Shown here: positions 14,523 through 35,265 of the stretch, in pieces
Layout: every line of letters starts with the position of its first letter
Position numbering within the stretch: position 1 is the first letter of the stretch
Virus record (IMG/VR): IMGVR_UViG_3300034061_006011
Strand: one strand, 5' to 3'
Source of the DNA: a virus
Lineage: Duplodnaviria > Caudoviricetes
Length of the DNA: 64,000 nt
Position numbers and translations under genes: made by a program
The notes under the pieces: generated by a model
Told to the model about the DNA's origin: nothing
Database searches by the model: none
What the model saw: the letters and a program-made list of their open reading frames with translations, nothing else

Positions 14523-14656
14523 CCTTGAATGCCGATTGATCCCCACACTACTATTATCGGCATTCAACCAACCAGACTTGAACCAACCTAAAGATTCTTC
14601 CTAACCACATTTTAGTATCCTAAGTTTGTCCGCATTGTCTCAATTGAAATAACAAT

Positions 14657-14689
14657 AAAAAAACCCCCTTCTCCGGGTGGAGAAGGGGG
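14657..14689 (-). terminator. Intrinsic terminator; identical copy at 19115..19147
   Basis: CCCCCTTCTCC/GGAGAAGGGGG stem with T-tract on the minus strand. Confidence 0.85.
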
Positions 14690-14710
14690 CTGTTGATTAT
14701 TGTTAGCCTA

Positions 14711-15376
14711 TCATTCAGATAACAGAATCATTTCTAATTCCCCCCCACGGATTCCCATTGAAGGGAATCCCTTGGCTGAATAAATTCTTTCGATTGCGTC
14801 TTCGGACGTTAGCCCGAAGACGTTTTGCAATTGTTGGAACAGGCACTTCAAATGGCGATCCAGTGCCAACTTTGTTATCACAATAACAAAGTTTTCAATG
14901 GTGCCGTTAACACGGCACGCCGTCCCAGTGGGACGGTTGATTTCAAAATTAACCGTCCCAAGACGGTTCACATCCCACTTATAACGCCCACTGGCGGATT
15001 GATCCGCCGGTGTTGGTAGTGGGTGTTGACAATTACAATAAGTATCCTGATCCGCATTGAAATAGTCCGCCCAATCAATGGGCGTTCCAATGCACGCCCA
15101 AAGATGCCCAAACGAATGGGCGATTTTACGGGACACCCGCAATTGTGCGGGTGTCATTTTTGAAGTCTCAAAACTGAATTCATCGGGATACCGAAGTGGC
15201 TCGCCACTCCAGTGGCGTGAACAGTCTCGCTTGCCCCGTAGGGCAAGCGATGCGATTTCAGCGGCATTGGGTGCCGCAGCGTTCTTCCTGATCCAGTGGT
15301 TGAGATACGCAACACGACCGGTTGCGGTTGCGGTTGCGGTTGCGGTTGCGGTGGCGGTGGCGGTTGAAATGGTCAT
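14711..15376 (-). CDS. Hypothetical protein with N-terminal Thr-Ala repeat
   Basis: Start moved to MTISTATAT, downstream of promoter and leader hairpins. Confidence 0.6.
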   Translation of the reverse strand: MTISTATATATATATATATGRVAYLNHWIRKNAAAPNAAEIASLALRGKRDCSRHWSGEPLRYPDEFSFETSKMTPAQLRVSRKIAHSFGHLWACIGTPIDWADYFNADQDTYCNCQHPLPTPADQSASGRYKWDVNRLGTVNFEINRPTGTACRVNGTIENFVIVITKLALDRHLKCLFQQLQNVFGLTSEDAIERIYSAKGFPSMGIRGGELEMILLSE

Positions 15377-15738
15377 GTTCGATACTCTCATGCCCGTTTC
15401 AGGTACGGGTGGACCTTGGCTAAGGTGAACCACAACATGCGGTTCACCTACGACTATCTTAACATCATCCCCAACTAGGTCAAGAGAAAATCCACCCAAG
15501 AGAAAAGATTCCTCCCATCCACATTTTAGTATCCTAGTGTTGTCTCAATTGTCCAGCAATAGGATTCCTCCCATCCACATTTTAGTATCCTAGTGTTGTC
15601 CACATTGTCCAGCAATAGGATTCCTCCCATCCACATTTTAGTATCCTAGTGTTGTCTCAATTGTATCAATTCAGATAACAATAAAAAAACCCCCTTGACT
15701 TGTCTGTCAAGGGGGTGGTTGATTAAGTTAGCCGATTG

Positions 15739-15945
15739 TTATTTAATTTTGTCGAGCCACATATCGATGATTCCAGAAACCAGTTTCCTTTCCTTTGGTT
15801 TCATTCTTAGAAACATTTTTAGATGTTCAACGATTTTCTCGAATCGTTCCAGCTCATTTTTGATTCTTTTAAGTTGTTTGTCTACCCTCTTTGGGCGAGA
15901 AACCTTTCCATCAACAATGCGGCTTGATTCGTTTTCAGTTCTCAT
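15739..15945 (-). CDS. Hypothetical basic helical protein
   Basis: Own promoter, leader and terminator. Confidence 0.6.
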   Translation of the reverse strand: MRTENESSRIVDGKVSRPKRVDKQLKRIKNELERFEKIVEHLKMFLRMKPKERKLVSGIIDMWLDKIK

Positions 15946-16192
15946 GGTATTCGATCCATACGGTTTTCAGGGGAACCGGGAACCTAGAAGCGGCACACTA
16001 TGCGCCGCCTCATGCATTCATTCTACCATCATCCCCAACTAGGTCAAGGGAAAAGAAAAGATTCCTCCCATACACATTTTAGTATCCTAGTGTTGTCTCA
16101 ATTGTCCAGCACAATATCAAAATTGAAATAACAATAAAAAAACCCCCTTGACTTGTCTGTCAAGGGGGCTGTAGTTTTGTTATCTGATATTG

Positions 16193-16459
16193 TTATTTTG
16201 TGAACGCCTCCAGTATTGCCTTCATGGCAACGTCTCTTATTTCACTCTTAGGCAAACGCATGATTGCCCGCATACAAGAGATTTTATTCTTGTAGCTTTT
16301 GAGTAGGTCATCCAATGGCGTTTTCTCCCTTGCGTGGGGTATTTCCGGCAGATTAAACCGCTGTGGCTTATCGCACTTAATGTATTCCTTGTATTCCTTT
16401 TCCCGCTTGTCGGCGGTTGGAGAAACGGTTGCGGCAACGGCGTTACGCTCAATTTTCAT
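16193..16459 (-). CDS. Hypothetical protein
   Basis: Own promoter, leader and terminator. Confidence 0.6.
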   Translation of the reverse strand: MKIERNAVAATVSPTADKREKEYKEYIKCDKPQRFNLPEIPHAREKTPLDDLLKSYKNKISCMRAIMRLPKSEIRDVAMKAILEAFTK

Positions 16460-16769
16460 AGCAGTCGATCCAACCGGTTTTCAGGGGAACCGGGAACCTA
16501 GAAACGGCACACTATGCGCCGCCTCATGAAGTCATTCTAACAACGTCCCCAACTAGGTCAAGAGAAAATCCACCCAAGAGAAAAGATTCCTCCCATCCAC
16601 ATTTTAGTATCCTAAAGTTGTCCGTATTGTATCTTAAGAGGAATTCCTCCCATCCACATTTTAGTATCCTAAAGTTGTCCGTATTGTATCGTAATAGGAA
16701 TTCCTTCCATCCACATTTTAGTATCCTAAAGTTGTCTTAATTATCTAGAACGATATCAAAAAAGGGTGT

Positions 16770-16890
16770 AATAGTGTTAGCCGATAACGAAATAGCGGAG
16801 ATAACGAAATGGCGGGAATAGTGTTAGCCGATAACGAAATAGCGAAGATAACGAAATGAAGGTAATAGTGTTAGCAGATAACGAAATTAA
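16770..16890. repeat. 47 bp-period array of AATAGTGTTAGCnGATAACGAAAT
   Basis: Units start at 16770, 16817 and 16864; five GATAACG cores. Confidence 0.85.
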
Positions 16891-16956
16891 AGATATGAAA
16901 ACAAAAAAACCCCGCAAGCCTTTCGACTTGCGGGGCAGATTGACCGGCAGGGGTTG

Positions 16957-17475
16957 TCATGTTGTCGTGTGTGATGTAATCTTGATCACATTATTGGAAA
17001 CACCTTGATAAACCGGAGACATCTTACCCGCATGAGTGAACTCAATTCCGTAATTGGCACCGACACGGAATTCGGTTTCCGTTCCGGGTTCATAAGCCAC
17101 GAAACCGATATTCGTTGCCTCATGAACAAAGTTCACGATGCGAGTTGGTTTCCCATATCCCCAGCGTACTGGTGAAACCCCTACGCATATCACTTCAATA
17201 TTGTAATTACCCGGCTCAATCGCTTGAGTGATTGGCGTTGGCAATTTAATAGCTGCAATTGGTGCAAGTGGTGCAATTGGTGCAATTGGTGCCACTGGTG
17301 GCACTTGCGCCACTGGTGCCACTGGTGGCACTTGCGCCACTTGCGCCAACGCTGCCCTAAGCGTTGCCAATTGTTCGGGGTTGAAACCCCGAACAAGATC
17401 AAGCATCGACTGGCTTGCATCGATTGCCACTGGTGCGGAAACGGACTTGGCGTTCTTGCGGGGTGCCATGGTCAT
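16957..17475 (-). CDS. Hypothetical protein with Pro/Ala/Val/Ile low-complexity linker
   Basis: Start moved to GGAG-led MTMAPRK at 17475. Confidence 0.65.
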   Translation of the reverse strand: MTMAPRKNAKSVSAPVAIDASQSMLDLVRGFNPEQLATLRAALAQVAQVPPVAPVAQVPPVAPIAPIAPLAPIAAIKLPTPITQAIEPGNYNIEVICVGVSPVRWGYGKPTRIVNFVHEATNIGFVAYEPGTETEFRVGANYGIEFTHAGKMSPVYQGVSNNVIKITSHTTT

Positions 17476-17791
17476 AAACTCCATGCCAGTTTCAGGATAC
17501 TGGCGGAACCGGTTAAGGTGAACCACAACATGCGGTTCACCTACAAGCATCATAGGGAAACCGTTTCACTAGGTCAAGCGAATTCCCAAGAAAGTTTCCT
17601 TACAAATTCTTAAGATCCGCGGACCCCCCCCCCTCCCATCCACATTTTAGTATCCTAAAGTTGTCTCAATTGTCCAGTCTGGTAACAAAAAAGGAATTCC
17701 TCCCATCCACATTTTAGTATCCTAAAGTTGTCTCAATTGTTTCTAAAAAAAACAAAATTAAATTATAATATTTAATTTCATAATTAAAATA

Positions 17792-17955
17792 GTTATCAGA
17801 TAACGAAAGTGGCAATAATGTTAGCCGATAACGGAATAGGGGAGATAACGGAAACGGTAATAGTGTTAGCGGATAACGTAAGTGGGAATAGTGTTAGCGG
17901 ATAACGGAAGTGGGAATAGTGTTAGCGAATAACGGAATAGGGGAGATAACGAAAT
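17792..17955. repeat. Second GTTA(G/T)CnGATAAC palindrome array
   Basis: Perfect GTTATCAGATAAC at 17792-17804, then about six imperfect copies; followed by the same terminator as the first array. Confidence 0.85.
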
Positions 17956-18027
17956 TACCGATATGAAAACAAAAAAACCCCGCAAGCCTTTCGACTTGCG
18001 GGGCAGGATTGCCGATATGTTATTCGA

Positions 18028-18285
18028 TTATGCACCAAGCCAGATGATCTTGGTGTTCTTATTGGCAAGATGACGGGTGAGCAGGAAGACGAGATCAGTG
18101 TCTTCCTTTTTTGAAATCATCTTGATTACGTCACCGTTTCGATCAACGGTCAATTGAACCGAAGTTCCTTCAATCTGGTTCATTCCAAGGCTTGTCACCT
18201 TGGAAGTGGACAACGCTTCAACAATTGCGTTATCTACTTTTGCGTCGATGAGAACAGCAATCGAAACCTGAATATTGTTATTCAC
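18028..18285 (-). CDS. Hypothetical protein
   Basis: GTG start; promoter at about 18360-18390; terminator downstream. Confidence 0.55.
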   Translation of the reverse strand: MNNNIQVSIAVLIDAKVDNAIVEALSTSKVTSLGMNQIEGTSVQLTVDRNGDVIKMISKKEDTDLVFLLTRHLANKNTKIIWLGA

Positions 18286-18545
18286 GGTAAGAATCTCAAT
18301 CCGGTCTTAAGGTGAACCGGTGACCTAGGCTTGTTGAACCATTCACCAAGCCATGAACGTATTAGACCACAAACGCCAAACCACGTCAAGAGAAAATTCC
18401 AGCAGGAGAAAATTCCTTCCATCCACATTTTAGTATCCTAAAGTTGTCTCAATTGTCCAGTCTGATAACAAAATTGAAATAACAATAAAAAAACCCCCTT
18501 GTCCGGGGGGACAAGGGGGCTGTCAATTTTGTTCTGTTATGAGAT

Positions 18546-18779
18546 TCACCACCAAGCGGTAGCGTTCTCCTTGCTCACTTCTGAAATCTTGATCAATATC
18601 GAAACGAGACTATCACGAAGCTCGTCATTCGATTGATCATTTCTGAATTCTTCAACGAGTACCTTGTACTTGGCTACAAGCTTTTCAATCTTTGAAATAA
18701 CATTGAGAAGCTGTTTGCTTGGAACCTTGGAAGCTTGGGCTTCCTCTTCTGCCGTCATGATTCTGTTATCGTTGTTCAT
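18546..18779 (-). CDS. Hypothetical coiled-coil protein
   Basis: Start moved to GGAG-led MNNDNR. Confidence 0.6.
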   Translation of the reverse strand: MNNDNRIMTAEEEAQASKVPSKQLLNVISKIEKLVAKYKVLVEEFRNDQSNDELRDSLVSILIKISEVSKENATAWW

Positions 18780-19169
18780 TTTGTTTTCTCCAGTGCTTTG
18801 CGACACCATGCCGCATTGAGCAAACACAATTTACCACAACCAACCGCAGCTTGTCAACAACACTATTTGCCCCTATTACGGTAGGAGATATACAGCCGTG
18901 TATATGTAGGGATTAGTATGCAAGATATGCAACGCCGATGGTGAACCGTCGATAAGCCGAACGGATTAGATAAGCATAAGACGGAACCGTCCCATCCACA
19001 TTTTAGTATCCTAAAGTTGTCTCAATTGTCCACGCAGATATCAAAACGACGATATGCCCCATCCACATTTTAGTATCGTAAAGCTAGTGGAATAGTAGCT
19101 TATTAAATAACAATAAAAAAACCCCCTTCTCCGGGTGGAGAAGGGGGCGGTTGATTATGTTAGCCTAAC

Positions 19170-20270
19170 TTATTTGGCTTCTTGATTTACCTTTTCAAGA
19201 GACTTCAGAATCATTGCAAGCTCATGGCGGCTTGCACAATTCTTAGCACCTTCAATATGTCCTGCAAAATCTGAAATGAACTTCCGTGCTTCAGATTTTG
19301 CATCACATTGTTTTTCAAGGAATAACAAAAGTCCATCGATTTCCTCCCTAGACAATCCCTTTTGCCGCTTTTCGGCGGTTGGGGAAACAGTTGGTTGGTT
19401 CAATGGTGGCAGTGGTTGACGTGATGGAGGAAGGACAGAAGAAGGAGTCTTCGGGTCCACTTTAGGTGGCATTGCTGCACCTGAAAGATTGATAGGTGGA
19501 AGATCTTTCTTCTTCTCTTCGATCTTAGCTACGGCTTTGGCTTCTGCTTTTGTGGCAGCAGAAGGAGCAATACCAGAATTGATTCCTTTATCGGCAAGCT
19601 TCTTGTCGATAACGTCAATAATTTTATCGTTGAGCTTCTTCTTCTCTTCCTTGCTCTTGTCCATTTCTGAAATCACTTCGGTTGCTGCGGCAATGTCCGC
19701 CATGACTTCAGGAGGAACAGCCTTTCCATTCTTCCTTTCTAACAAACGAAAAGCGGAAGACTTCGTATATTCTCCTTCATGGATAGACAATTGAATTGCT
19801 TCGGGCAACTTGAGCAATTTCAAAAAGTTTGATACTTCAGAATCTGAAATATTAAAATGCGCTGCTATGGTCTTTTGTGTCCAATTGAATTCCTCCTTAG
19901 CCCGTAGCATATCCTTAGCCCGATCAATGAATGAAGGATTGTGATATGAATTCTCAACAATCTGAATTACGAAATGATCTTCTCTGGTCCTTGCCTTGTA
20001 AACAAGAGCTGGAATCTCCTTTAATCCAGCTTCTTTAGCTGCCATGGTACGGCGAATGCCGCCCATGACTTCAAAAGTGCCGTCTTCCTTTTCATTCAGA
20101 ATGATATTCTGAAGAACTCCATGAATCTTAATGTTATTTGCCAATTCTGTGATTGACGCTGGGTCCATTCCAGCCTTCCGATTCCTTGACAAATCATAAT
20201 TGATTTTGTCAAGAGCAACGATCATCCGAACAGAAGCAGGTGAAGAAGAAACCTTAGATGCCTTAGCCAT
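19170..20270 (-). CDS. parB: ParB/Spo0J-family partition protein
   Basis: ELANNIKIHGVLQNI, GGIRRTMAA, IVENS, HTH WTQKTIAAHFNISDSEVSNFLKLLKLP; SD-led start at 20270. Confidence 0.85.
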   Translation of the reverse strand: MAKASKVSSSPASVRMIVALDKINYDLSRNRKAGMDPASITELANNIKIHGVLQNIILNEKEDGTFEVMGGIRRTMAAKEAGLKEIPALVYKARTREDHFVIQIVENSYHNPSFIDRAKDMLRAKEEFNWTQKTIAAHFNISDSEVSNFLKLLKLPEAIQLSIHEGEYTKSSAFRLLERKNGKAVPPEVMADIAAATEVISEMDKSKEEKKKLNDKIIDVIDKKLADKGINSGIAPSAATKAEAKAVAKIEEKKKDLPPINLSGAAMPPKVDPKTPSSVLPPSRQPLPPLNQPTVSPTAEKRQKGLSREEIDGLLLFLEKQCDAKSEARKFISDFAGHIEGAKNCASRHELAMILKSLEKVNQEAK

Positions 20271-20901
20271 TTCAAAATCTCCTATTTTGTTTTCTTTCAG
20301 GATCAAACTGTTCTCACCTGAAAGAAACCGTTCCGCCCTTTAGCGGTGAACCCATTAAACCACAACCGGCTTAACGTGTCAAGTGTTTTTTTTCCTCGGC
20401 AAAACAAGCGTTTTTAACACTTGCAACTTCAGAATTGAACACGGTTGGCGTTGTGTTTTCACAAATCCACCCAAACCACACCACCATCAAGGACACCCTT
20501 AGTATACGAAAAACACCGAGGAAAATCAAGTACCTCTTATATATTGATATCATAGGCGCGCGCCCCCTTCCATCCACATTTTAGTATCCTAAACCCATCT
20601 TTAATTGATACTAAAATGTGAATGGGGATGGGCGGTTTTATACAAGTATAAAATCATATCAATCGTTTGATTCGATTCCTTCCATCCACATTTTAGTATC
20701 CTAAAGTTGTCTCAATTAGTTTTGCTCAAGTATCAACTAAGTCTCAATTGCGTTTTTTCAACTATCTGTAAAGGGGAAATTACATTTCATAATCATTCCT
20801 CCATCCACATTTTAGTCTCAATTAAAGATGTGCTTAGGATACTAAAATGTGGATGGAACCGGACAGTCTTATACTAATACAAAATCAATTCATTCGTTTC
20901 A

Positions 20902-20949
20902 TTTGATTCATTCATTTGATTCATTCGTTTGATTCATTCGTTTGATTCG
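20902..20949. repeat. Tandem 13-mers TTTGATTCATTC(A/G)
   Basis: Three full copies and one partial. Confidence 0.85.
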
Positions 20950-21068
20950 TTTCTTTCCCATCCACATTTTAGTCTACAAGAAGTGTAGCTTATTAAATAA
21001 CAATAAAAAAACCCACCTGAGATGTCTCAGGTGGGTGATGAATTTTAGATTGTTAGAGTCTTATTTGA

Positions 21069-21407
21069 TTACGATCCAACAAGGCTCTCATTCAATTCAA
21101 GATGCATTTCTAATGTGTCACCGGGACGCATACCACCCCGATAATCCAACTCTTTGAACTTCTGACAAATGATACCGAACAACTCATTCTTGATTCTGTC
21201 ATGCTCTTCAGGATCTTCTGAGAAAGGAATGGGAACATTCCAACTCTTAATACTACAAGGATCACCCTTGAGAAATAATTTAGATGCATTAAGGATTTCC
21301 CATCCACATGATGCAAGTGGCAATCCAAAGAAAATTTGCCTGTTATTTGTGTGCATTGTATAGACGTTACCGGATGGTGACCTATGGAAGTAGAATACTG
21401 TATTCAT
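21069..21407 (-). CDS. Hypothetical protein
   Basis: AGGAG-led start MNTVFY. Confidence 0.6.
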   Translation of the reverse strand: MNTVFYFHRSPSGNVYTMHTNNRQIFFGLPLASCGWEILNASKLFLKGDPCSIKSWNVPIPFSEDPEEHDRIKNELFGIICQKFKELDYRGGMRPGDTLEMHLELNESLVGS

Positions 21408-21475
21408 CTCATTCTCCTTATCGAGTACCCGACTTCCCACTGTGTTCCATCAGGTACTCAAATTGTATCAAACTA

Positions 21476-21805
21476 TCAACCACCTGTCAAGTACAAACCA
21501 ATTTCACTAACCAAACTCTCCTTAAGCGTTTTATATTCATCATCAATTTTGTCACAAAAGGCATTTTTCAATCTTGCATGTATCTGATTTATGTTTTCTA
21601 AAATGTTTTTCTTAGCGGAGCTGTCTTCTCTTTGAATAAAGTATTGAAACTTTGTCCAAAGATACTTTAATTCATCAACCATCCTCCTGTAATCCTTTAG
21701 ACTAAGATAAACTGAAGCCACTTCAGGCATCTTTAGTCTTTTACCATTCGGCAACACCAACCAACTACCATCTTGGTCATCTACAATTTCAATTTCACAA
21801 TCCAT
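21476..21805 (-). CDS. Hypothetical protein
   Basis: SD-led; promoter at about 21850-21880. Confidence 0.6.
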   Translation of the reverse strand: MDCEIEIVDDQDGSWLVLPNGKRLKMPEVASVYLSLKDYRRMVDELKYLWTKFQYFIQREDSSAKKNILENINQIHARLKNAFCDKIDDEYKTLKESLVSEIGLYLTGG

Positions 21806-21994
21806 TTTGTCGGTTCCTTTAATGTTATGACTCTCTGTTGGTCATAACACCATTATACCACACATTTTGTCTCTTGTCAAGCCCCTCATGTGCGTGTACA
21901 CGATATGTGCGTGCGGTATATGTGCGCCCGGTATATGCTAAACCACCGATAACAAAAAAACCCACCAAGTTTACCTTGGTGGGTCTGAGTTTAT

Positions 21995-22240
21995 TCAACT
22001 TACACGACATAAACGATACACAAATGGCTTGGTTCGACCCCTTTTGTCCTTGTATAAGTCCCTTTTCTTCGTGATCACAAGCGTTTCTTCGCCTACGTCG
22101 ATCTCTTGAGCATGTTTTCCACGCCCATAAGGGATTAGAATAGAGAAAATGTCGTCATTACCATTGATTTCATCGGTTATGACTTGTCGATTAACGCATT
22201 GGATGATATGGAACACCCGATTAGCGAATTCATTCATCAC
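21995..22240 (-). CDS. Hypothetical protein
   Basis: Overlaps the stop of the upstream gene (coupled). Confidence 0.55.
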   Translation of the reverse strand: MMNEFANRVFHIIQCVNRQVITDEINGNDDIFSILIPYGRGKHAQEIDVGEETLVITKKRDLYKDKRGRTKPFVYRLCRVS

Positions 22241-22479
22241 TTTTCTCCCTTATCTGTGAATTTTGTGTTCTCACAAGGGATGCAATTGTGAATTGTACCA
22301 TCTTCCATAACGAAATCTTGCACTTCTACAAGATCCTTCACATACGTTCTAACAGACGCACGGAACGTCTGCTTGTCTTTGTATAGTCCAAACCCTTTTC
22401 GGACAACAAAAGTAAACAGCTTCATCGTTTCCATCTTCAATTCCTCCATTGCAGGTGCGATTTGCTCCTGTTTACACAT
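22237..22479 (-). CDS. Hypothetical protein
   Basis: ORF track; promoter immediately upstream. Confidence 0.5.
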   Translation of the reverse strand: MCKQEQIAPAMEELKMETMKLFTFVVRKGFGLYKDKQTFRASVRTYVKDLVEVQDFVMEDGTIHNCIPCENTKFTDKGEK

Positions 22480-22860
22480 TGTAACAAAAATATTTTGTTA
22501 TGTCAAGAAAAATTTTCAACTAGGCGCATACATATTATTTCATACAACGTGCATATTGCACCTATTAGACACAAAGAGAGTATGAATATGTAATAGCGGG
22601 CGTTTGACCCGCTTCCTTTCCTATCCTTCACTTGGATAGGTTTTTTTATTTGTATAATGCTTCGCTCCATTATTTTCCACAAATCCCCATTTCATCCCAC
22701 CTTATAAAACCTGCCTTACATTATATCTACTTTTCTCAATCCTGATATGTGACTACTTTCCATATCATTTATGTAATTGGTTTGAAATAGTTTTAATTAT
22801 TCCATAAAAAAACCCCTTGGGGATTAGCCAAGGGGTTGATATGGATAGTGTTGATATGTG

Positions 22861-23190
22861 TTATTCTTCTTTAAATGGTAATTCTTTGTGGTGCCGAATA
22901 CGAAGGAGTTTAGATTCTGAATCGGTTAAAGAGTTATTGCAGACTACTCTAACTTCATTAAGTTGGAGTTTTTCCATCAACTCCTTTAATTGGATCTCTT
23001 CCGTTATTGGTTGTACCATTGCAAATGGTACATAGGGAAGATCATCTACTTCTCCTATCTGTGTCCCATTTGGTGTTTCATACTCCACCTGATCACCTGC
23101 AACGAACTCCTGAGACACGAACTTGTTGTCTTCAAATCTTTGGATAACAAAACCGTGCGTAATCTTATAAACCATCTCTTGATACTCCAT
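22861..23190 (-). CDS. Hypothetical protein whose C-terminus is a DUF932-derived patch
   Basis: SDSESKLLRIRHHK-like segment shared with 25755 gene. Confidence 0.6.
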   Translation of the reverse strand: MEYQEMVYKITHGFVIQRFEDNKFVSQEFVAGDQVEYETPNGTQIGEVDDLPYVPFAMVQPITEEIQLKELMEKLQLNEVRVVCNNSLTDSESKLLRIRHHKELPFKEE

Positions 23191-23353
23191 TTTGTTTTAG
23201 GTGAGTGACGACATGTCTTTCACCTACGACAATTGTAGCAGATATTTGGCTTGGTGTCAAGTAATTTTTTGTTTATGTTTTGTTTGTATTTACATAAAAA
23301 AAACCCCTTGGGGATTAGCCAAGGGGTTGATATGGATAGTGTTGATATGGTGG

Positions 23354-23968
23354 TTATGAGTATTGTGGACGATAGTTGCCGGTATGTGATTCGCCGGGGA
23401 ATCGTTCATTTGTGATACCATATTCTGTTGGACCATCTGGTTCCGGCAGATAGTCAGCATCTAATCCTCTTGCTTCTAACCAGTCAAGAGATTCCGATAG
23501 GTGTTTATCGTGTTGTCGTTTGCTTGCTTCATTCAGTTCTTCTGCAAAATCCTGCATTTCCTGTCTAATCTGATCGGCTTGTTCGCCATTTAGACATTCA
23601 TAAGACTCTTGAAGGAAGCTTTGATGATACCACCAACCACCTTCTTCTGCTCCTCCGTAGGACTGGTAGTGTTCATATAAAGATATGAACTTTGATGGTT
23701 GTTGAATTCTGTTTTGTGAATCACATTCGCATGTGTTCTTCTTGCCTTCGCATCGTTCACCACCGCCTTCATATTTAATACAAATTCCATCTTCATTAAG
23801 CTCAGGAGATTCGCATTCACATGTTTGCCAGTAAATTTCCTTATTACAATTTTGGCAAACATGTGGTGGTCGTTTGATTTCTTCTTCTCTGTTTTCTTCA
23901 CCGAATACTTTCTTCAGATTATACTTAGCGATGATTTTGCTGAATGATTCTGCTTTATACTTAGGCAT
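23354..23968 (-). CDS. Hypothetical Cys-cluster (Zn-binding) protein
   Basis: CQNC...CEC and further Cys pairs; start moved to GGAG-led MPKYK. Confidence 0.65.
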   Translation of the reverse strand: MPKYKAESFSKIIAKYNLKKVFGEENREEEIKRPPHVCQNCNKEIYWQTCECESPELNEDGICIKYEGGGERCEGKKNTCECDSQNRIQQPSKFISLYEHYQSYGGAEEGGWWYHQSFLQESYECLNGEQADQIRQEMQDFAEELNEASKRQHDKHLSESLDWLEARGLDADYLPEPDGPTEYGITNERFPGESHTGNYRPQYS

Positions 23969-24129
23969 CTTGATACTCCATTGGTTTGAAAGCAAGCCAT
24001 TTGCTTTCGTGGATGTATTGTATCAGGTATTTGGTTTAGTGTCAATGTTTTTTTTTGGTATTATGTTTGCATAAAAAAACCCCCTTGGGTGTTATCCAAG
24101 GGGGTTGATATGGTTGGTGTTGATATGTG

Positions 24130-24831
24130 TTATTCTTGTTCTTGTTTAAGTTGTTGTGAGTTATATTGTGCCCAGAGGAGTGGGCAATTGGTTTTAATCC
24201 AATTTTGTACTCTTGCGATTTCATCAAGACGATTGTGCCAATGTGATTTCATATAATCATTATCTTGATCGAAGGTATGTCTTCCTCTGGCATATCTTTC
24301 TGCACGTTGTTCTCCTGAGTCATGGTTCTCCATTTCGGAGTATGCATTATTGATCTGATCTTCGAGGTACTTGATGAAGTTTAGATTAACTTCAATCTCT
24401 CCGCACTTCCTTAGAAGTCTGAGTGTGGCATCTTCGAGCAACTTCCTTTCCTTTTCATTCTTAAGAAGAACGAAGTCAACCATTTGCATTAGTACAGCAC
24501 GTCCGTCAATTTCGTGGTCGTTAGCCTCATCGAACTTTTCCTTCAGACTTTCAAAGTCTGTAATTTCTTGAAGATAAGCAATAATCTCAGGGACTTCGTT
24601 GCTGTTGTGGAAACGGAGTCCTCGGCTGAGACTTTTGATGACATCTTCGATGTTTGCTTCTTTTGTAATTGTTCTACAAGAGAAGTTCCCACTTTCTGGA
24701 TCACCGTAATCATAATCTTCTACGATGAAGATTTGATGTTGAAATTTATCCTTAATCCTTTGAATTTCCTTGTTGATTGTCTCTTGATGGATATTGCGCT
24801 CTTCGATAGTCATTTCAGGCATATTAGGCAT
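24130..24831 (-). CDS. Hypothetical protein
   Basis: 233 aa; own promoter, hairpin, SD and terminator. Confidence 0.7.
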   Translation of the reverse strand: MPNMPEMTIEERNIHQETINKEIQRIKDKFQHQIFIVEDYDYGDPESGNFSCRTITKEANIEDVIKSLSRGLRFHNSNEVPEIIAYLQEITDFESLKEKFDEANDHEIDGRAVLMQMVDFVLLKNEKERKLLEDATLRLLRKCGEIEVNLNFIKYLEDQINNAYSEMENHDSGEQRAERYARGRHTFDQDNDYMKSHWHNRLDEIARVQNWIKTNCPLLWAQYNSQQLKQEQE

Positions 24832-25004
24832 CTTGATACTCCTTTGGGTTACGAGAGCAAGCTGTTTGCTTTCGTGAGTGCATTGTAACAGGTATTTGGT
24901 TTGGTGTCAATGTTTTTTTTTGTTTTTTTTGGTGTTTGTATTTGCATAAAAAAACCCCCTTGGGTGTTATCCAAGGGGGTTGATATGGTTGGTGTTGATA
25001 TGTG

Positions 25005-25232
25005 TTATTCTTGTTTGAATAGGTCTTTGAAATGATCTTTGAATTTATCAAAGTCTTCCTGAGAGAGACTTGATTCCCAATATTGTCTATTGGGATTTTC
25101 CATTGTTTCTTCTACTTCTTCGACAAAATTTATGTCTTTTAGAAGTTTGCTTATAGCAAAGTTTTCTTTATCGAGATCAGTGATTTTGTTTTCATTCATG
25201 TATTGAATGAATTCTTCTTTCGTCCATTCCAT
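25005..25232 (-). CDS. Hypothetical acidic protein
   Basis: Start moved to MEWTKEE. Confidence 0.65.
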   Translation of the reverse strand: MEWTKEEFIQYMNENKITDLDKENFAISKLLKDINFVEEVEETMENPNRQYWESSLSQEDFDKFKDHFKDLFKQE

Positions 25233-25754
25233 CTTGATACTCCATTGGTATGAAAGCAATCCATTTGCTTTCGTGGATGTATTGTATCAGGTATTTGGTT
25301 TAGTGTCAATGTTTGTTTTTCATTTCGTTAAACTTTTGGTTTATAGAATTAGTTAGTTCTCTTTTGATTGCCATAATTTCCGTATGTGTTGCATTCTTAA
25401 GATGCTCTTTGAGCATGATAAGCAGCTTGTCGATGTGGCTTTGTATTTGGATAAGTTTAATATCCTGTTCAAGTGAATAAGGCATGGGCGATCCTCCTGA
25501 TATGAAAGAGTTGATTAGAAAAGTTTCTGTTCATACTTTCCATTCTATATTCTAACCTATTTTCTCTTGTTGTGTCAATACCTCTTATTTTGGCTTATAG
25601 CTCATTTATTTCTTTCCTTGGGACTTCGGGTGATTATTAGAAGATAATCGTTTCTAGGTGGCGTTATGTAAAACTGTGAATGGGTTTATGTGATTGCATA
25701 AAAAAAACCCACACTGGTTTTTGCCAGTGTGGGCTTATGGTTTATTAAATTCGA

Positions 25755-26735
25755 TTAGTTAGCGACTTGGACGGCTAGGTCTAACGCCCGTTTGTTCATA
25801 TTAGCTGATTGACCGAACCAGAGGGAGGTGTATCGGTTATCAGGGTTTCGTCCGGCGTTGTGAGAGAGGTGTTCGGTGACTGCGTTGTAAGCAGACCACC
25901 AAGTACCTTCAGCGAGGTCAGATCCTACGCCGACATAGGCGAGGTCGGTGATTTCTTTGACACGGTTGAAGGAGCGGGTTGACATTTCGCCATCGGTATT
26001 GACATCAACGTCAAGGACTTTGATGACATATTCGACGAGATCCTTGTGGTTAACGATTCTGCTTTTGGCGAGGAATCGGTATTGTTCCATGGTGGCTTGG
26101 AACTCAGAGTTTGCGAGAACCATAATTTCTCGAACTTTGTCGAGAACTTCGGTTTGTCGTTTGTGGTGCCGAATACGGAGGAGTTTAGATTCCGAATCGG
26201 ATTTAGCTTGAGCTAATGTATTAGCACAAACTACACGGACTGGGGTGAAACCTGCACGGGTGGATTGAGTCCCGTCGAATGAAGTGGAAAGAAGGATATA
26301 GCGTTTAATCGCATCACCTTTAACGACTTCGGATTCTTCTTCATTAACTTTGCACATAGCAAAGATAACCCTACCTCCTTTGAGGACACCGGCGGTTTCA
26401 AAAGTAGCTAGACCTGAGTCAACAACAGGTTGAAACCATTGAAGAGCTTCACTTGGTTGAATTGGTTCCCATTGTGGACCAACTGTGCCGAGGTAAGCTT
26501 GATCGACATCACGGAGAACGCCGAATGAATCTTCGGTTGGTGTAAATTCTCCGTTTTCGTCTTTGCGGTAGAGAGGGGATTTGTAAACTCCCCAATCCAT
26601 GTTTGCGGCTTTGAGGAAGGACAGATAATTCTTAGTATCATCTCCTTCTACTTTCTGACCGAGTGAGTGCCAACCGGGTTGACCGGCGAAGGCGAAAGAA
26701 GCGACATTATTCCTGTTTTCGATATCGTGTGCCAC
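25755..26735 (-). CDS. DUF932/TIGR03299-family phage-plasmid protein
   Basis: PGWHSLG, FETAGVLKGG, STSFDG..STR..FTPVRVVCANTL, TWWSAYNAVTE, SLWFG; GTG start after GGAG. Confidence 0.8.
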   Translation of the reverse strand: MAHDIENRNNVASFAFAGQPGWHSLGQKVEGDDTKNYLSFLKAANMDWGVYKSPLYRKDENGEFTPTEDSFGVLRDVDQAYLGTVGPQWEPIQPSEALQWFQPVVDSGLATFETAGVLKGGRVIFAMCKVNEEESEVVKGDAIKRYILLSTSFDGTQSTRAGFTPVRVVCANTLAQAKSDSESKLLRIRHHKRQTEVLDKVREIMVLANSEFQATMEQYRFLAKSRIVNHKDLVEYVIKVLDVDVNTDGEMSTRSFNRVKEITDLAYVGVGSDLAEGTWWSAYNAVTEHLSHNAGRNPDNRYTSLWFGQSANMNKRALDLAVQVAN

Positions 26736-26857
26736 TGTCTGAATCTCCTTATAACTGTCGTTTCTGGGCGAAGTTGCCGTTGACGACAGGTGTATTGTAG
26801 CGTGTTTCGGTCGTGGTGTCAAGTGTTTTTTTTTATTTTTTTGGGGTTTGTGGTTGT

Positions 26858-27100
26858 TTAATTTTTTGGGAATTTTGGGGTAATTTCTGGTGAAACGTGG
26901 ATATCGTCCTTATCGTTGATGATATAGAACGATGCTGATATGGTCATTTTGTCTATGAAACCTTCTTCTTTTGTATAAACATTAACACGGAATCTGTTAT
27001 CGAATATATTGATTACATTTACATGGGAGAAGTTTGGTGGAGTTCCCAGTTGATCTAATACAAAGTCAGCGATTTCATTATTTTCTTCCTTGACCTTCAT
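26858..27100 (-). CDS. Hypothetical protein
   Basis: Start moved to MKVKEE; NIFDNRFRVNVY. Confidence 0.6.
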   Translation of the reverse strand: MKVKEENNEIADFVLDQLGTPPNFSHVNVINIFDNRFRVNVYTKEEGFIDKMTISASFYIINDKDDIHVSPEITPKFPKN

Positions 27101-27189
27101 GCTAATCTCCTTTTGATATGGCGAAGTTGCCATGGTGTAATTGTATCTTGTTAGGTGTTAATTGTCAATAGATAAAATCTGAAATAAAA

Positions 27190-27522
27190 TTATTTTAGAT
27201 TTGGGAAAATTCCATATTTTCTATCGCTGTGGATGGTAGCGGTGCCGTCATTTATAGCTTTCTGCATAATTTCTAGGCATTTATCTTTATCAAATTGTGG
27301 GTAATGGTGATATGGGTCAACTAGAATAGATTCTAGTGTAGTTTTCATTTCTATAAGTTCTTCGTAGCGGATATAGTCATCTTGGGACTGGAAAGCTTCC
27401 ATGAGAGCAATTCTTCTGATTGCTAGGGTATTTTCATGGAATGTGAAGTCAGTGTATCCCCAACCGTTTTTAGGAATCCAAGTTCTTAGACCTGTGGGGA
27501 TGCTTTTATACTTTGTGGTCAT
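27190..27522 (-). CDS. Hypothetical protein
   Basis: Start moved to MTTKYK. Confidence 0.6.
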   Translation of the reverse strand: MTTKYKSIPTGLRTWIPKNGWGYTDFTFHENTLAIRRIALMEAFQSQDDYIRYEELIEMKTTLESILVDPYHHYPQFDKDKCLEIMQKAINDGTATIHSDRKYGIFPNLK

Positions 27523-27778
27523 TCTATAACTCCTTTTATATGGCGAAGTTGCCATGTGTTTATTGTATCGTGTTTATTTTTGTTTGTCAATAGGAAAAAA
27601 AACCCCAGTGATTTTGGTCACTGGGGTTTTGGGTTTTATTGTTCTTTTATAATTTTGGCGAGTTTAGCTGATCTGGTATTTTGTCGTTTTGTTTTTTTGT
27701 TATTATGGATACCTGCACCTGAGAGGTGTGGTTTATGTCCTGTTGATATGTTGAGGGTATCAATTTTACCTATGATCT

Positions 27779-28108
27779 TCATATAACTCCTTTCAATTTA
27801 TATTCTTCTAGTGTTAGAAGACTTTGTTCATCCCAATTTTTTGGGAAGTTATCTTCTACTTTATTTACGAATTCTTGATGATTTTCGTCATTATCATCAT
27901 ATACTAGGCGTACAGAGTAATAGTAACCGAAATCATGTGGGTTACTTTTGATTGTGTAATATACGCCTTCTGGTTTTGGGAATTGTCTTTCTAGTTGTTT
28001 AATTAGAGTTTTTGCTTCTAATTTTGCCATAATTGAGTCATAGTTTGGTCCTAATTGTTGGCAATTTTCTTCATATGGGGTTGTTTCAAATTCGTAATAG
28101 TCAGACAT
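27779..28108 (-). CDS. Conserved phage hypothetical protein
   Basis: TPYEENCQQLG...KSNPHDFGYY motif; SD-led. Confidence 0.65.
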   Translation of the reverse strand: MSDYYEFETTPYEENCQQLGPNYDSIMAKLEAKTLIKQLERQFPKPEGVYYTIKSNPHDFGYYYSVRLVYDDNDENHQEFVNKVEDNFPKNWDEQSLLTLEEYKLKGVI

Positions 28109-28187
28109 TGTGATACTCCTAATTGGTTATCAGCAATCCGTTTGCTGATAAGGGTATTGTAGCGCAGATTAGAGAGTTTGTCAATGT

Positions 28188-28412
28188 TTAATTCATTTTA
28201 TTTACGAATCTTTTCCATCGTTTTCTGTAATTTTTATCAGATTCTGTCTCTTTTGAGACATTTTGCTTGCAGTTTGGGCAAGCTGAGTAATTGCTTGTTT
28301 GGTTTAATGGATTATAGGAGCCGTTGAATGGATTATGGGAGCCGATGAGATTTTCCCGGCAGAGGGAGCATTCTTGATAGATCGTTTGATAAATACTAAG
28401 TCTTAATTGCAT
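28188..28412 (-). CDS. Zn-ribbon-like protein, paralog of 29636
   Basis: CSLC...CPNC; shared SDKNYRKRWKRFVNK tail. Confidence 0.6.
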   Translation of the reverse strand: MQLRLSIYQTIYQECSLCRENLIGSHNPFNGSYNPLNQTSNYSACPNCKQNVSKETESDKNYRKRWKRFVNKMN

Positions 28413-28468
28413 TGTGTGATACTCCTAATTGTGGAAATGGAAAAGGGGGAGGGCGTGTCTCTTCAGGT

Positions 28469-28783
28469 CTAATCAACAATTGGTTGCTGATCGATAATCC
28501 TGTGAATCTCTGTGGAATCATATGAACATATCCTAGATATGAAACCTTGCAGTTCTACCAAAGAATATATCTTTGGTTCTTCTTCTTTAGTTGATAATTC
28601 ATTCCATGTGTGTACTCGGAATTGATAACAATCACCATCATTGGCAATTCTTTCTATCTTCTCGATAGAATAATTTTGACTGTCCCCAATATCAGCATTG
28701 GGGTTGTTTTCAATATTCTGCTTGAGAATATCCAGTTTGCTTTCCAACAAAGCAATTGCCAACTTGTGTGCAAAGTTATACAT
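28469..28783 (-). CDS. Hypothetical protein
   Basis: SD-led, own promoter. Confidence 0.6.
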   Translation of the reverse strand: MYNFAHKLAIALLESKLDILKQNIENNPNADIGDSQNYSIEKIERIANDGDCYQFRVHTWNELSTKEEEPKIYSLVELQGFISRICSYDSTEIHRIIDQQPIVD

Positions 28784-28971
28784 CTCACATACTCCTTCTT
28801 ATCGGCAGCCATTGCTGACAATGTATCATAGGTAGTTGAACGTAGATAAGTCAACTTTTGTGTTTACCTAATTTTGTTTATTTCTTTAATAATTTCTTGG
28901 ATAAGAAGGGGGGGAGAATGTGTCTTGAAGCACTCTCCCCCCCCTATTAGCACCTTGTTGGTGCTAATATA

Positions 28972-29325
28972 TCAAATTTCTTCTGCTGGTAGCTTGTCGA
29001 TGCATTCTTGGACAAAAGTTTCTCGTACACCGATTTCTCGGCAGACTTCTTTGATTGTTTGTTCGAGGTTTGGATTATCAACCAAAACTCCTGCCCTGTG
29101 ATTCTTTTCGCCTTGCCATTTGGTATCATGTCCAGCGGAAACTAAAAAGGTGTTTGTTCCCTTCTTCTTACGGATGCGAAGCCACCAGTCACGGGATGCT
29201 TGGCATTCGTACTCTCCTTCCCAACCTTTGTGGAACAGGATTACATCCCATTCGTTTTTATTGATTTTGACAGGTCTTCTGCCTGTCATGGTAACTGTGA
29301 GGCTATTGTCGTTCTTGGTAGTCAT
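28972..29325 (-). CDS. Hypothetical protein, paralog of 29949
   Basis: SLTVTMT...EYECQA...LPAEEI. Confidence 0.7.
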   Translation of the reverse strand: MTTKNDNSLTVTMTGRRPVKINKNEWDVILFHKGWEGEYECQASRDWWLRIRKKKGTNTFLVSAGHDTKWQGEKNHRAGVLVDNPNLEQTIKEVCREIGVRETFVQECIDKLPAEEI

Positions 29326-29426
29326 TTTAAGAATTCCTAACGTGAGTGATATTGGTCACTCGTCCATATCCCGGCGGGGCACACCGCTTGGGGAGAGTTT
29401 TAACCTGTGCCGGTGGTTTGGGTGGC

Positions 29427-29575
29427 TTAGACTGCGTTAAGCATCATCTTTGCCATTGTGGACAATTTGTGTTTGGCTTGGACTAAGGAATTCTCTAAGA
29501 ATTCCTTATTGTTTTGCAAGTCTTTAATATCCGTTTTCAGTTTATGTTCTTCCTTTTTGAGTTGTATAATTAGCT
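29427..29575 (-). pseudogene. 5'-truncated copy of the 30418..30744 gene fused to a promoter/leader
   Basis: Near-identical 3' half (IQLKKEEHKLK...KMMLNAV) joined at a broken leader hairpin. Confidence 0.6.
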
Positions 29576-29635
29576 TGAAAGCAATCCGTTTACTGATAAG
29601 GGTATTGTAGCGCAGATTAGAGAGTTTGTCAATGT

Positions 29636-29848
29636 TTAATTTGTTTTGTTTACGAATCTTTTCCATCGTTTTCTGTAATTTTTATCAGATTGTGTCTCTT
29701 TTGAGACTTCTTGTCTGCAATTGGGGCACATATTGTATTTGTTTGCTATTCCGTGGAATATTACATCGAAGCTTTTTGCTTCTGGTGAATTGATATCATT
29801 GTCTCTGCAAAGACTGCATTCTAGATCTAGGCTCATTTCTAAATACAT
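29636..29848 (-). CDS. Zn-ribbon-like protein
   Basis: CSLC...CPNC; start moved to GGAG-led MYLEM. Confidence 0.6.
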   Translation of the reverse strand: MYLEMSLDLECSLCRDNDINSPEAKSFDVIFHGIANKYNMCPNCRQEVSKETQSDKNYRKRWKRFVNKTN

Positions 29849-29948
29849 TTGTGTACTCCTAATTGTGTAAATGCAAAAAAAGGGGGAGAGTGTGTCTTGA
29901 AGCACTCTCCCCCTATTAGCACCAACGAGGTGCTAATATATCGTTGTA

Positions 29949-30347
29949 TCAGATTTCTTCAGCAGGTAGATCTGCGATACAGGATTGAGCTAATGAATCG
30001 CTTCCGTTGATCTGTTCAACGATATCTTTTATAGCTTGGGGTGCATCATTGATATTGTCAATAATGACACCAGCAGAGATGGTATCTTCTCCACTCCAAC
30101 CGGAGTAGAAAGATCCGTATACGACACATCGATCATCGCCATCCCTTTGACATTGGCGAACAGACACTTTCCATGTTCTGTTTGCCTGACATTCATACTC
30201 ATTGTCCCAATCTTTGGCTTGGGCAACTAATGTCCAAACCTTTTTGCTTACTTTGACAGGTGGACGGTCTGTCATTGTGATAGTAAGACTATCGTTCTTT
30301 ACTTCTGTCATTGTCGTTCTCGCATGGTTTGGTGATAGAATCGTCAC
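29949..30347 (-). CDS. Hypothetical protein, paralog of 28972
   Basis: SLTITMT...EYECQA...LPAEEI; start uncertain. Confidence 0.7.
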   Translation of the reverse strand: MTILSPNHARTTMTEVKNDSLTITMTDRPPVKVSKKVWTLVAQAKDWDNEYECQANRTWKVSVRQCQRDGDDRCVVYGSFYSGWSGEDTISAGVIIDNINDAPQAIKDIVEQINGSDSLAQSCIADLPAEEI

Positions 30348-30417
30348 CTGTCGATTGTCCGTCAGGGCACACTGATTGGGACTGGATTTAACCTGTGCCG
30401 GTGAATTGGTTGGCTTA

Positions 30418-30744
30418 TCAGACTGCGTTAAGCATCATCTTTGCCATTGTGGACAATTTCTGTTTGGCTTGGATCAAAGAATTCTCTAGGAATTCTTTGT
30501 TGTTTTGCAAGTCTTTAATATCATTTTTAAGTTTATGTTCTTCCTTTTTAAGTTGTATAATTTCTTTATTTAGGTCCATTTTGGACTGCATCATTTCCCA
30601 AAATGGGATTATGCACATATCATTTTGGATAGCGTTGACGATCATTGGCAATACATCTTTGAAGATATCTTGCAGATAACCGTCTGGAAGATTGCCACAA
30701 AAATTTGTAATCTTGTTAATTTCGTTTGACTTCTCAATATTCAT
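30418..30744 (-). CDS. Coiled-coil hypothetical protein
   Basis: SD-led, own promoter. Confidence 0.65.
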   Translation of the reverse strand: MNIEKSNEINKITNFCGNLPDGYLQDIFKDVLPMIVNAIQNDMCIIPFWEMMQSKMDLNKEIIQLKKEEHKLKNDIKDLQNNKEFLENSLIQAKQKLSTMAKMMLNAV

Positions 30745-30829
30745 CTTGATACTCCTTTGGGATTACGAGAGCAATCCATTTGCTTTCGTGAGTGTATTGT
30801 AACAGATCTTTTATGATTTGTCAAGGGAA

Positions 30830-31009
30830 TTATCCGTTGATATTGTTTTTGTTATGATCTAAGACATACCAATCGTGACGATTGGGGTAATCGTCGTTGA
30901 TTAGTTCTTCTGCAAAGGTCATAGCGTCTTTGTCATTATATGTTTCAAATTCGTCTACGATATCCCATTCCCCTGATTCCCGAACGAAGGCAACATGATA
31001 CTTTTTCAT
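30830..31009 (-). CDS. Hypothetical protein
   Basis: Start moved to MKKYHV. Confidence 0.5.
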   Translation of the reverse strand: MKKYHVAFVRESGEWDIVDEFETYNDKDAMTFAEELINDDYPNRHDWYVLDHNKNNING

Positions 31010-31010
31010 A

Positions 31011-31211
31011 TTATACTTTCTCAACAATGAACTTATTTTGGGCGAAATTATAGTGAAAGTATACTTTTTGGTTATGAAATAAGCCGATACCTGAAGTACC
31101 ATTAGTGGTACTGGAGAGAATTTTGAATTTAGGAATGTTTTGATACTTTGTATGAGGAACTGGTTCTTTTGTGTGATTGATACTTAGCAATTCTTCTAAC
31201 TGTGTGAGCAT
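31011..31211 (-). CDS. Hypothetical protein
   Basis: AGGAG-led. Confidence 0.55.
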   Translation of the reverse strand: MLTQLEELLSINHTKEPVPHTKYQNIPKFKILSSTTNGTSGIGLFHNQKVYFHYNFAQNKFIVEKV

Positions 31212-31265
31212 CTTATTCTCCTTAGTGCTTGCCAGCAGTTGTTGCTGGCAAGCGTGTTATAGGGA

Positions 31266-31472: not shown

Positions 31473-31599
31473 TTTTCTCTCCTTGTGTTTATCAGCAACA
31501 GTTGCTGATAAGTGTATTGTAACAGGGGTTAGGGGTTATTGTCAATAGTAAAAACCTAATACTCATGTTTTTTGTGCATAGGTATTAGGAAAGTATAAA

Positions 31600-33517: not shown

Positions 33518-33518
33518 T

Positions 33519-35261: not shown

Positions 35262-35265
35262 ATCA

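Follow-up and report, generated by a model that had tools for sequence, protein, structure and literature searches.

A 64,000-nucleotide (nt) stretch of the Caudoviricetes virus record IMGVR_UViG_3300034061_006011 (hereafter referred to as the window) contains, at 14.6–20.4 kb, an island whose genes, all encoded by the minus strand, follow one another as parB, F, E, D, C, B and A. Here we report that unrelated small open reading frames (ORFs) of this island are preceded by a structured RNA leader, formed on the transcribed strand, in which constant loops are carried on changing stems. An initial annotation had proposed such a leader, common to unrelated island genes and with loops held constant while the stems turn over, and our covariation counts bear it out. 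Comparison with related loci indicates that the leader is part of a portable cassette comprising a promoter and a 5′ untranslated region (UTR), and that the regulatory DNA is more conserved than the genes downstream of it. The layout of the leader suggests that it probably controls the lifetime of the message and the efficiency of its translation.

Hairpin 1 keeps its loop on diverged stems

Six cassettes occupy 14.7–18.9 kb on the minus strand, each with its own σ70-type promoter and terminator enclosing a leader and a small ORF. Every leader sequence quoted in the initial annotation was found on the minus strand where it had been placed, and cassette E, which had been omitted, carries both hairpins of the leader. 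Hairpin 1 is a 10-base pair (bp) stem capped by an A-Y-R-K-U pentaloop, and its copies in the window are as follows:

15423–15449, minus strand: hairpin 1 of A, class S1 (GGUGAACC), closing G·U and C–G pairs, pentaloop AUGUU; its first base is the 7th after the −10 element
15987–16011, minus strand: hairpin 1 of B, class S3 (GAGGCGGC), pentaloop AUAGU
16501–16525, minus strand: hairpin 1 of C, class S3 with two G·U pairs, pentaloop AUAGU
17516–17542, minus strand: hairpin 1 of D, class S1, pentaloop AUGUU; whole-leader model match with an E value of 5.9e-5
18328–18352, minus strand: hairpin 1 of E, class S6 (GGCUUGGUGA, one G·A mismatch), closing G–C and A–U pairs, pentaloop AUGGU
18799–18815, minus strand: hairpin 1 of F, class S5 (UGCG), pentaloop AUGGU

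The loop had been described as conserved on different stems and 9 nt long. Its conservation stands; its length had to be revised, since the ends of the 9-nt segment pair as G·U and then C–G, leaving the pentaloop. AUGUU, AUAGU and AUGGU occur in the window, and ACAGU additionally in relatives. Because cassette E has G–C and A–U as closing pairs around an unchanged AUGGU pentaloop, the ends of the original 9-nt loop covary too, and in one relative the loop-closing G·U is replaced by G–C. One stem serves both A and D, and B and C match at 88% identity over 120 nt, so the copies described initially represent three independent hairpin-1 stems in the window. With the relatives included, the stems fall into six classes (S1, S3, S5 and S6 as listed above, S2 with GGUCAGGGC and S4 with GACGUGGC).

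In a MAFFT alignment of whole leaders, the 3′ arms fell out of register between classes; we therefore counted pairs in fixed windows, with a script for one type of hairpin 2 (type d, below). Among 17 distinct sequences, 91.8% of the hairpin-1 cells were paired, versus 30.6–54.1% when the partner column was slid; 8 of the 10 pairs were altered on both sides, and the covariation score was reached by none of 500 shuffles. Classes S3 and S4 differ by exactly two pairs, both doubly compensated. The hairpin contains 29 G·U cells, and A·C is absent from its 14 unpaired cells; therefore, the fold belongs to the sense strand, in agreement with the original observation that substitutions give G–U pairs on the transcribed strand. 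RNAalifold recovered hairpins 1 and 2 unprompted.

A covariance model seeded with B/C-type leaders from the window and its relatives was used to search the whole window with filters off. It recovered the leaders of cassettes E (46.7 bits, E value 3e-11), D (E value ~6e-5) and A (E value 0.03). One further match (56179–56232, plus strand, E value 0.0028) is antisense to an ORF at 54972–56429 and was taken as a chance hit.

Hairpin 2 carries a CC..AA loop on four unrelated stems

Five of the cassettes contain a second hairpin; cassette F lacks it and has GGAG as its Shine–Dalgarno (SD) sequence. The five copies are as follows:

15393–15409, minus strand: hairpin 2 of A (type a), CCCGU/ACGGG, loop ACCUGAA; model E value 1.4e-5
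15961–15978, minus strand: hairpin 2 of B (type b), CGGUU/AACCG, loop CCCCUGAA
16474–16493, minus strand: hairpin 2 of C (type b), CCGGUU/AACCGG, loop CCCCUGAA
17485–17504, minus strand: hairpin 2 of D (type c), GCCAGU/ACUGGC, loop AUCCUGAA
18301–18320, minus strand: hairpin 2 of E (type e), CCGGUU/GACCGG, loop CACCUUAA; model E value 8.6e-5

Hairpin 2 occurs on four unrelated stems (a, CCCGU; b, CCGGUU; c, GCCAGU; d, CCCGAUG), type e being type b with a U·G pair, and its loops (ACCUGAA, CCCCUGAA, AUCCUGAA, CACCUUAA, ACCGUAA and ACCUAAA) conform to N(N)CCNNAA. For types a, b, c and e, 93.8% of the cells were paired, compared with 17.5–56.3% in slid controls, and with type d brought into register the five inner pairs were 100% paired, four of the five being altered on both sides. 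With relatives included, the covariation of both hairpins thus stands far above the slid controls. A hairpin-2 model found only the five island copies in the 64 kb, the next match having an E value of 1.1. RNAalifold and some minimum-energy folds extend the base of hairpin 2 by 3–4 bp, pairing UCC or UUCC with GGA or GGAG; in cassette E this extension pairs UCA with UGA, and type a has none.

One feature of cassette C lies across this region: a 10-nt segment, CGGUUGGAUC (16466–16476, minus strand), spans the 3′ arm of hairpin 2 into the SD region and is identical to the segment of 16S ribosomal RNA directly 5′ of the anti-SD (...CCUGCGGUUGGAUCACCUCCUUA; 3′ end of E. coli rrsH, L033). The loop UCACCUUAA of cassette E also resembles the 16S 3′ tail. 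The likeness of CGGUUGGAUC is probably due to chance, and the 10-mer is present in only some type b leaders.

The hairpins hold fixed positions behind near-identical promoters

The promoter TTGACN-N16–18-TAnnAT precedes every cassette and is near-identical across cassettes and across phages. A scan for the σ70 consensus listed the promoters of A, B, C, D and F, whereas those of E and parB, with TG-extended −10 elements (TCTAAT and TTTAAT) outside the rule of the scan, were read by eye:

15456–15483, minus strand: promoter A, TTGACC-N16-TAAGAT
16020–16047, minus strand: promoter B, TTGACC-N16-TAGAAT
16534–16561, minus strand: promoter C, from the consensus scan
17549–17577, minus strand: promoter D, TTGACC-N17-TATGAT
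18361–18389, minus strand: promoter E, TTGACG with TG-extended TCTAAT, read by eye
18828–18857, minus strand: promoter F, TTGACA-N18-TAAATT with TG

The first nucleotide of hairpin 1 in the cassettes is the 7th to 9th after the −10 element, so that 0–2 unpaired 5′ nucleotides are predicted if transcription starts at the usual distance. Hairpin 2 ends 11–16 nt upstream of the start codon and 2–4 nt upstream of a weak SD-like GGA, GAG or GGG.

The leader of parB is built differently. It had been noted that the loop sequence is there paired with an upstream complement, and we located this pairing, of UUUCAGG with CCUGAAA, in the first of two hairpins:

20289–20329, minus strand: parB leader hairpin, UUUCAGG/CCUGAAA; CUUCAGG/CCUGAAG in relatives, one compensated pair
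20334–20347, minus strand: short 5′ hairpin of the parB leader, CCGC/GCGG, not of the pentaloop type

The island promoters also have a repeat upstream. About 30 nt upstream of the −35 element of each lie 1–3 tandem copies (56–57 or 67 nt apart) of a repeat of ~40 nt with the minus-strand core ATACTAAAATGTGGATGG. We list 17 copies at 14599–20986 (for example, 15513–15543, 16591–16621 and 17634–17664), and many contain a promoter-like TGGACA-N16-GATACT; two inverted copies lie near 20.6–20.85 kb. The repeat could be an activator site, a repressor site or a set of extra promoters.

Leaders and genes are reassorted among related phages

We gathered relatives through homologues of ParB (61–89% identity) and of protein D, through the contigs that carry them and through a metagenome scan for the upstream repeat. 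This yielded 35 related loci (L001–L032 and L034–L036; L026 is the same contig as L014), all from lake metagenomes wherever a source is stated, with L001 being 100% identical to the window. Searches of IMG/VR with ParB and with an exact 18-mer from the upstream repeat returned nothing similar, and blastn of the island against the INPHARED/GenBank phage set gave no match. The relatives supplied 26 distinct canonical leaders, and further ones came with L034–L036.

The same leaders precede at least 11 unrelated ORF families, and identical leaders extend up to the start codons of different ORFs. Conversely, the D family is found behind S1+c, S1+a, S2+c and S2+a leaders (hairpin-1 class plus hairpin-2 type), the E family behind S6+e, S6+b and S4+b, and one further ORF family behind S3+b and S3+d. 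Whole cassettes are exchanged as well: L006 has two other cassettes in place of A, with breakpoints in the upstream repeats (~15563) and in the terminator (14670), and L023 has four. As cassette pieces recombine between genes and phages, part of the similarity among the leaders reflects shared descent and exchange, not selection acting on every copy separately, and hybrid S3/S4 hairpins place crossovers within the conserved apex.

Hairpin 1 is the local form of an early-transcript feature

Beyond the island, 29 promoters of the form TTGACA-N17-TACAAT lie at 21–40 kb, each with folded RNA directly 3′ of it: the first 37 nt after these promoters have a mean folding energy of −9.0 kcal/mol, versus −3.9 kcal/mol for control segments. 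All ten clean pentaloops of this main early region begin with A-Y (AUGGC, AUGGA, ACGGA, ACAGC and others). Because early promoters precede such similar hairpins, hairpin 1 of the island is a local form of a general early-transcript feature. Genes of the main early region possess strong AAGGAG sites and lack hairpin 2, and the island is distinguished by hairpin 2 together with a weak SD sequence. Within the window hairpin 2 is thus peculiar to the island and hairpin 1 is not, most early promoters having a counterpart of it at the predicted 5′ terminus.

The recurring loops of the main early region (21400–39600, minus strand) belong to two classes, A-Y-N-N-N pentaloops on ...CAGCAA/UUGCUG... stems and an AACUUC hexaloop on GGC/GCC stems. 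In a comparison with CsrA-type sites, GGA was present in main early hairpin loops (AUGGA and ACGGA) and absent from the island loops.

Recognition of the loops and alternative explanations

The explanation that we favour, and hold tentatively, is a cis-acting post-transcriptional leader whose loops are recognised by some putative factor. The leader module would travel with a portable early promoter and act after transcription. Hairpin 1, at the predicted 5′ end of the message, would shield it against 5′-end-dependent decay (by RppH and RNase E, or by RNase J), which is the simplest role for it because a stem-loop at the extreme 5′ end is known to block these enzymes. Hairpin 2, adjoining the weak SD sequence, would serve as a translational operator or enhancer. 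The A-Y-R-K-U pentaloop with its C–G and G·U closing pairs, together with the N(N)CCNNAA loop, would be retained through being read by a factor of phage or host origin. Precedents exist for both roles: pairing at the 5′ terminus is known to protect against RNase E and RppH (PMC3997798), and the operator of T4 gene 43 is a hairpin next to the ribosome-binding site (PMC3014915). Between classes, the loops vary less than the stems and linkers. We favour recognition by a factor because stems and linkers have diverged fully while the pentaloop, its closing pairs and the CC..AA positions have not; purely structural selection predicts the opposite, since loops should then drift fastest. What the sequences show directly is the two hairpins, the covariation, the sense strand, the constant spacing to promoter and start codon and the modular exchange; we infer the start of transcription, the stabilising and translational effects and the existence of a binder. 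Protein binding to the loops is plausible, and a phage-encoded protein co-regulating the island genes, as the initial annotation supposed, would be one putative form of it.

A more elaborate version, which we regard as rather doubtful, treats the loops as address tags: one factor would read the A-Y-R-K-N pentaloops of most early transcripts, and a second factor or domain the CCNNAA loop of the island. An early phage protein could be the binder, one candidate being the modelled oligonucleotide/oligosaccharide-binding (OB)-fold protein D. If true, the tags would define a phage-wide post-transcriptional regulon on portable promoter–UTR cassettes, in which a timed nuclease or repressor could shut down gene sets jointly and a captured ORF would join the regulon immediately.

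Several observations weigh against the favoured explanation. The binder remains putative, the OB-fold protein D being only a candidate for it, and the 5′-terminal placement of hairpin 1 is itself inferred from promoter prediction. The copies all derive from a single, narrow clade of lake phages, with stem classes that are recombining paralogues, so the cell counts are not independent events. In the D family, the 150 nt upstream of the gene are 93–97% identical where the coding DNA is 66–70% identical, and homogenisation by recombination could explain part of the conservation of the loops. Five hairpin-1 types are S3/S4 recombinants with 1–3 mismatched pairs (~6 of 43 copies); perfect pairing is thus not always enforced. 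Type d hairpins (loops ACCGUAA and ACCUAAA) were not recognised by the model built on types a, b, c and e, and are counted as hairpin 2 by their position and ACCNNAA loop only. Computed accessibility of the SD sequence was ~0.5 everywhere, with no consistent pattern.

Homogenisation by recombination leaves some weight with an explanation by structure without a specific binder, which we consider possible, if on the unlikely side. Hairpin 1 would simply protect the 5′ end and hairpin 2 would insulate the folding of the UTR, so that the ribosome-binding site behaves alike whatever ORF is joined to it, and the loops would be alike through being young copies homogenised by recombination. Both the identity of regulatory DNA relative to coding DNA and the mismatched hybrids left by crossovers inside hairpin 1 fit this explanation, as does the free reassortment of hairpin types, SD spacers and ORFs; mobile cassettes of T4-type phages, discussed below, are known to shuffle similarly (PMC2839356). 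It accounts poorly for six hairpin-1 classes whose stems and linkers are fully diverged while the pentaloop and closing pairs are kept, and for the recurrence of the A-Y pentaloop start in the main early region, where the stems are unrelated. Transcription offers another point of action: the nascent two-hairpin RNA could act on polymerase so that it passes the cassette terminators, as in HK022 put or in the manner of lambda nut/boxB, or a −10-like NAYRKT could pause σ70-bound polymerase. The stem-loops do directly follow an early promoter, strong terminators lie behind each ORF, and CATAGT, CATGTT, CATGGT, CACAGT and AATGGT all keep the −10 A at position 2 and T at position 6. However, with a promoter in each cassette read-through is unnecessary, and we saw no boxA, no GNRA-like boxB loop and no Rfam match; a σ pause requires no hairpin, whereas the stems covary, and the −10-like reading fails for the loops AUGGC and AUGGA of the main early region. 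A signal of either kind is therefore unlikely.

Still less probable is an element acting as DNA, with the inverted repeats as sites of cassette exchange or as single-stranded DNA hairpins in an origin- or partition-like island. In its favour, relatives exchange cassettes with crossovers within and between hairpins, parB, repeat arrays and an OB-fold gene are found in the island, and DNA hairpins tolerate G·T pairs too. Yet every copy keeps a constant position relative to the −10 element, SD sequence and start codon, always on the sense strand; the cassette A swap in L006 breaks in the upstream repeats and terminator rather than in the hairpins; and no recombinase gene was seen among the Pfam and PHROG family matches of the island ORFs. 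A short upstream ORF (uORF) is the least probable explanation, to the point that we rejected it. In the leaders of B and C and in those of S4 type, a nine-codon frame opens with an AUG at the base of hairpin 1 and closes with a UAG just past the hairpin, but the four differences between S3 and S4 are all non-synonymous and yet restore base pairs, and the frame stops after three codons in E, is absent from S1 leaders and continues in type d leaders.

Genes and other features of the island

The window has a low G+C content (29–35%), with a richer stretch (38–43%) at ~12–36 kb; the cassette island at 16–20 kb is its highest part (43%). Only parB has a family match in the island, the ORFs A–F being without Pfam or PHROG match:

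19170–20270, minus strand: parB, with ParB_N and HTH_ParB domains
18546–18779, minus strand: ORF F, 77 residues
18028–18285, minus strand: ORF E, 85 residues, GUG start
16957–17469, minus strand: ORF D, 170 residues, C-terminal 90 residues modelled as an OB fold
16193–16459, minus strand: ORF C, 88 residues, no family match
15739–15945, minus strand: ORF B, 68 residues, basic (isoelectric point 10.3), no family match
14711–15376, minus strand: ORF A, 221 residues, no family match, weak SD GAGAG 8 nt 5′ of the AUG
14662–19148, minus strand: seven intrinsic terminators, one per ORF, from the promoter/terminator scan (19148–19121, 18521–18492, 18004–17977, 16936–16909, 16170–16141, 15716–15689 and 14691–14662)

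The model of protein D comprises an N-terminal helical part, a Pro/Ala-rich linker and a C-terminal OB fold (predicted local distance difference test > 90, residues 80–170). Its closest structures are nucleic-acid-binding OB domains (an RPA domain, Z score 9.1; a small single-stranded DNA-binding protein (SSB), 8.1; PriB, 7.9); Foldseek gave no match at E ≤ 0.001. Protein D has 43 homologues, with identities down to 47%, in lake metagenomes. For protein A, an Atlas look-up returned sub-threshold matches only (0.81). The N terminus of protein A (15310–15370, minus strand) contains a variable Thr/Ala run encoded by a hexanucleotide repeat, which reads TATATATATATATAT in the window and is a 12-Thr run or TTATATAKTTAKTTA in L017, L018 and L022.

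A short segment is common to protein C (16400–16440, minus strand) and the C-terminal part of ParB (19370–19400, minus strand), TVSPTADKREKE versus TVSPTAEKRQKG, and may be left over from an exchange between cassettes by recombination. A GTTAGCCGATAACGAAAT-like unit is repeated, at spacings of 28, 45 or 47 nt, in arrays at 16768–16890 and 17784–17960, between the D and E terminators and the next cassette; these arrays might be binding (parS-like) sites for ParB. The early region that contains parB also encodes, ~5 kb upstream of that gene, a DUF932 protein (25755–26822, minus strand; E value 3e-44). In conjugative plasmids, too, genes for DUF932, ParB-like and SSB-like proteins occur together in the leading region.

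Comparison with known systems

In a search of the window against Rfam 15, only two transfer RNAs reached the gathering threshold, consistent with the initial description of the leader as undescribed-looking. At E values up to 5, the island gave sub-threshold, terminator-like matches to leader families and scattered weak matches to microRNAs and small RNAs; among them is a Mu-gpT-DE match that scores 18.1 bits, with 49 as the threshold, and overlaps hairpin 1 of A.

As a mobile cassette, the element resembles the promoter-early stem-loops (PeSLs) of T4-type phages, which are mobile regulatory cassettes (Arbiol et al. 2010, PMC2839356; Comeau et al. 2014, PMC4122927) and in one subclass have their stem-loop just downstream of the −10 element (PMC2839356). 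In both, strong σ70-like early promoters are repeated and joined to a stem-loop, stand upstream of ORFans in variable regions and recombine between copies to swap genes among related phages. However, PeSL stem-loops have been interpreted as terminators or attenuators and lack a conserved loop, whereas the island has separate U-tailed terminators, no U tract in the sequence after hairpin 1 or 2, and two hairpins inside the 5′ UTR with conserved loops over covarying stems. Unlike PeSLs, the island promoters carry 1–3 copies of the 40-nt upstream repeat. Thus, conserved loops and a second hairpin are what the island adds to the PeSL.

The layout of the leader has a counterpart in the ompA 5′ UTR stabiliser of Emory, Bouvet, Arnold and Belasco (cited in PMC3997798), which reportedly has a 5′-terminal stem-loop, hp1, and a second one, hp2, before the ribosome-binding segment. 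Both have a hairpin before the SD sequence and another within a few nucleotides of the 5′ end, which in the island is a predicted end. They are unrelated in sequence, ompA has no loop motif common to unrelated genes, and stabilisation by the island leader is suggested by analogy. Another such 5′ stabiliser is the stem-loop at the 5′ end of the leader of T7 gene 10.

Phage translational operator hairpins include those bound by the MS2 and PP7 coat proteins. Hairpin 2 has the layout of an operator, adjoining the SD sequence and keeping CC and AA at constant loop positions over four unrelated stems, and it is like the gene 43 operator of T4 and RB69, a 5–7-bp stem with a sequence-sensitive loop of 7–8 nt by the ribosome-binding site (PMC3014915). 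Phage operators serve one gene and have a known binder, whereas the island hairpin type precedes at least 11 unrelated ORF families and its binder is putative.

Lambda nut/boxB and HK022 put are antitermination RNAs. They too are stem-loops placed right after early promoters, with terminators downstream; the island differs in its loops (AYRKU and CCNNAA), in having a promoter for each gene, in that no boxA was seen and in showing no similarity in Rfam.

Large uncultured phages have many small early genes of uncharacterised function in fast-changing islands, and here a promoter, two RNA hairpins, a weak SD sequence and a terminator form a standard part that recurs with at least 11 unrelated ORFs. 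Should a factor read the loops, the leader would provide compact, transferable post-transcriptional control and a handle for early gene sets in metagenomes; if the hairpins merely stabilise and insulate, it would be a natural context-independent expression cassette. Because the motif is short, compensatory variants are clear and the promoters are of the σ70 type, reporter tests are feasible. By analogy with these systems, the element would work like an ompA-type stabiliser and an operator hairpin combined on a PeSL-like cassette.

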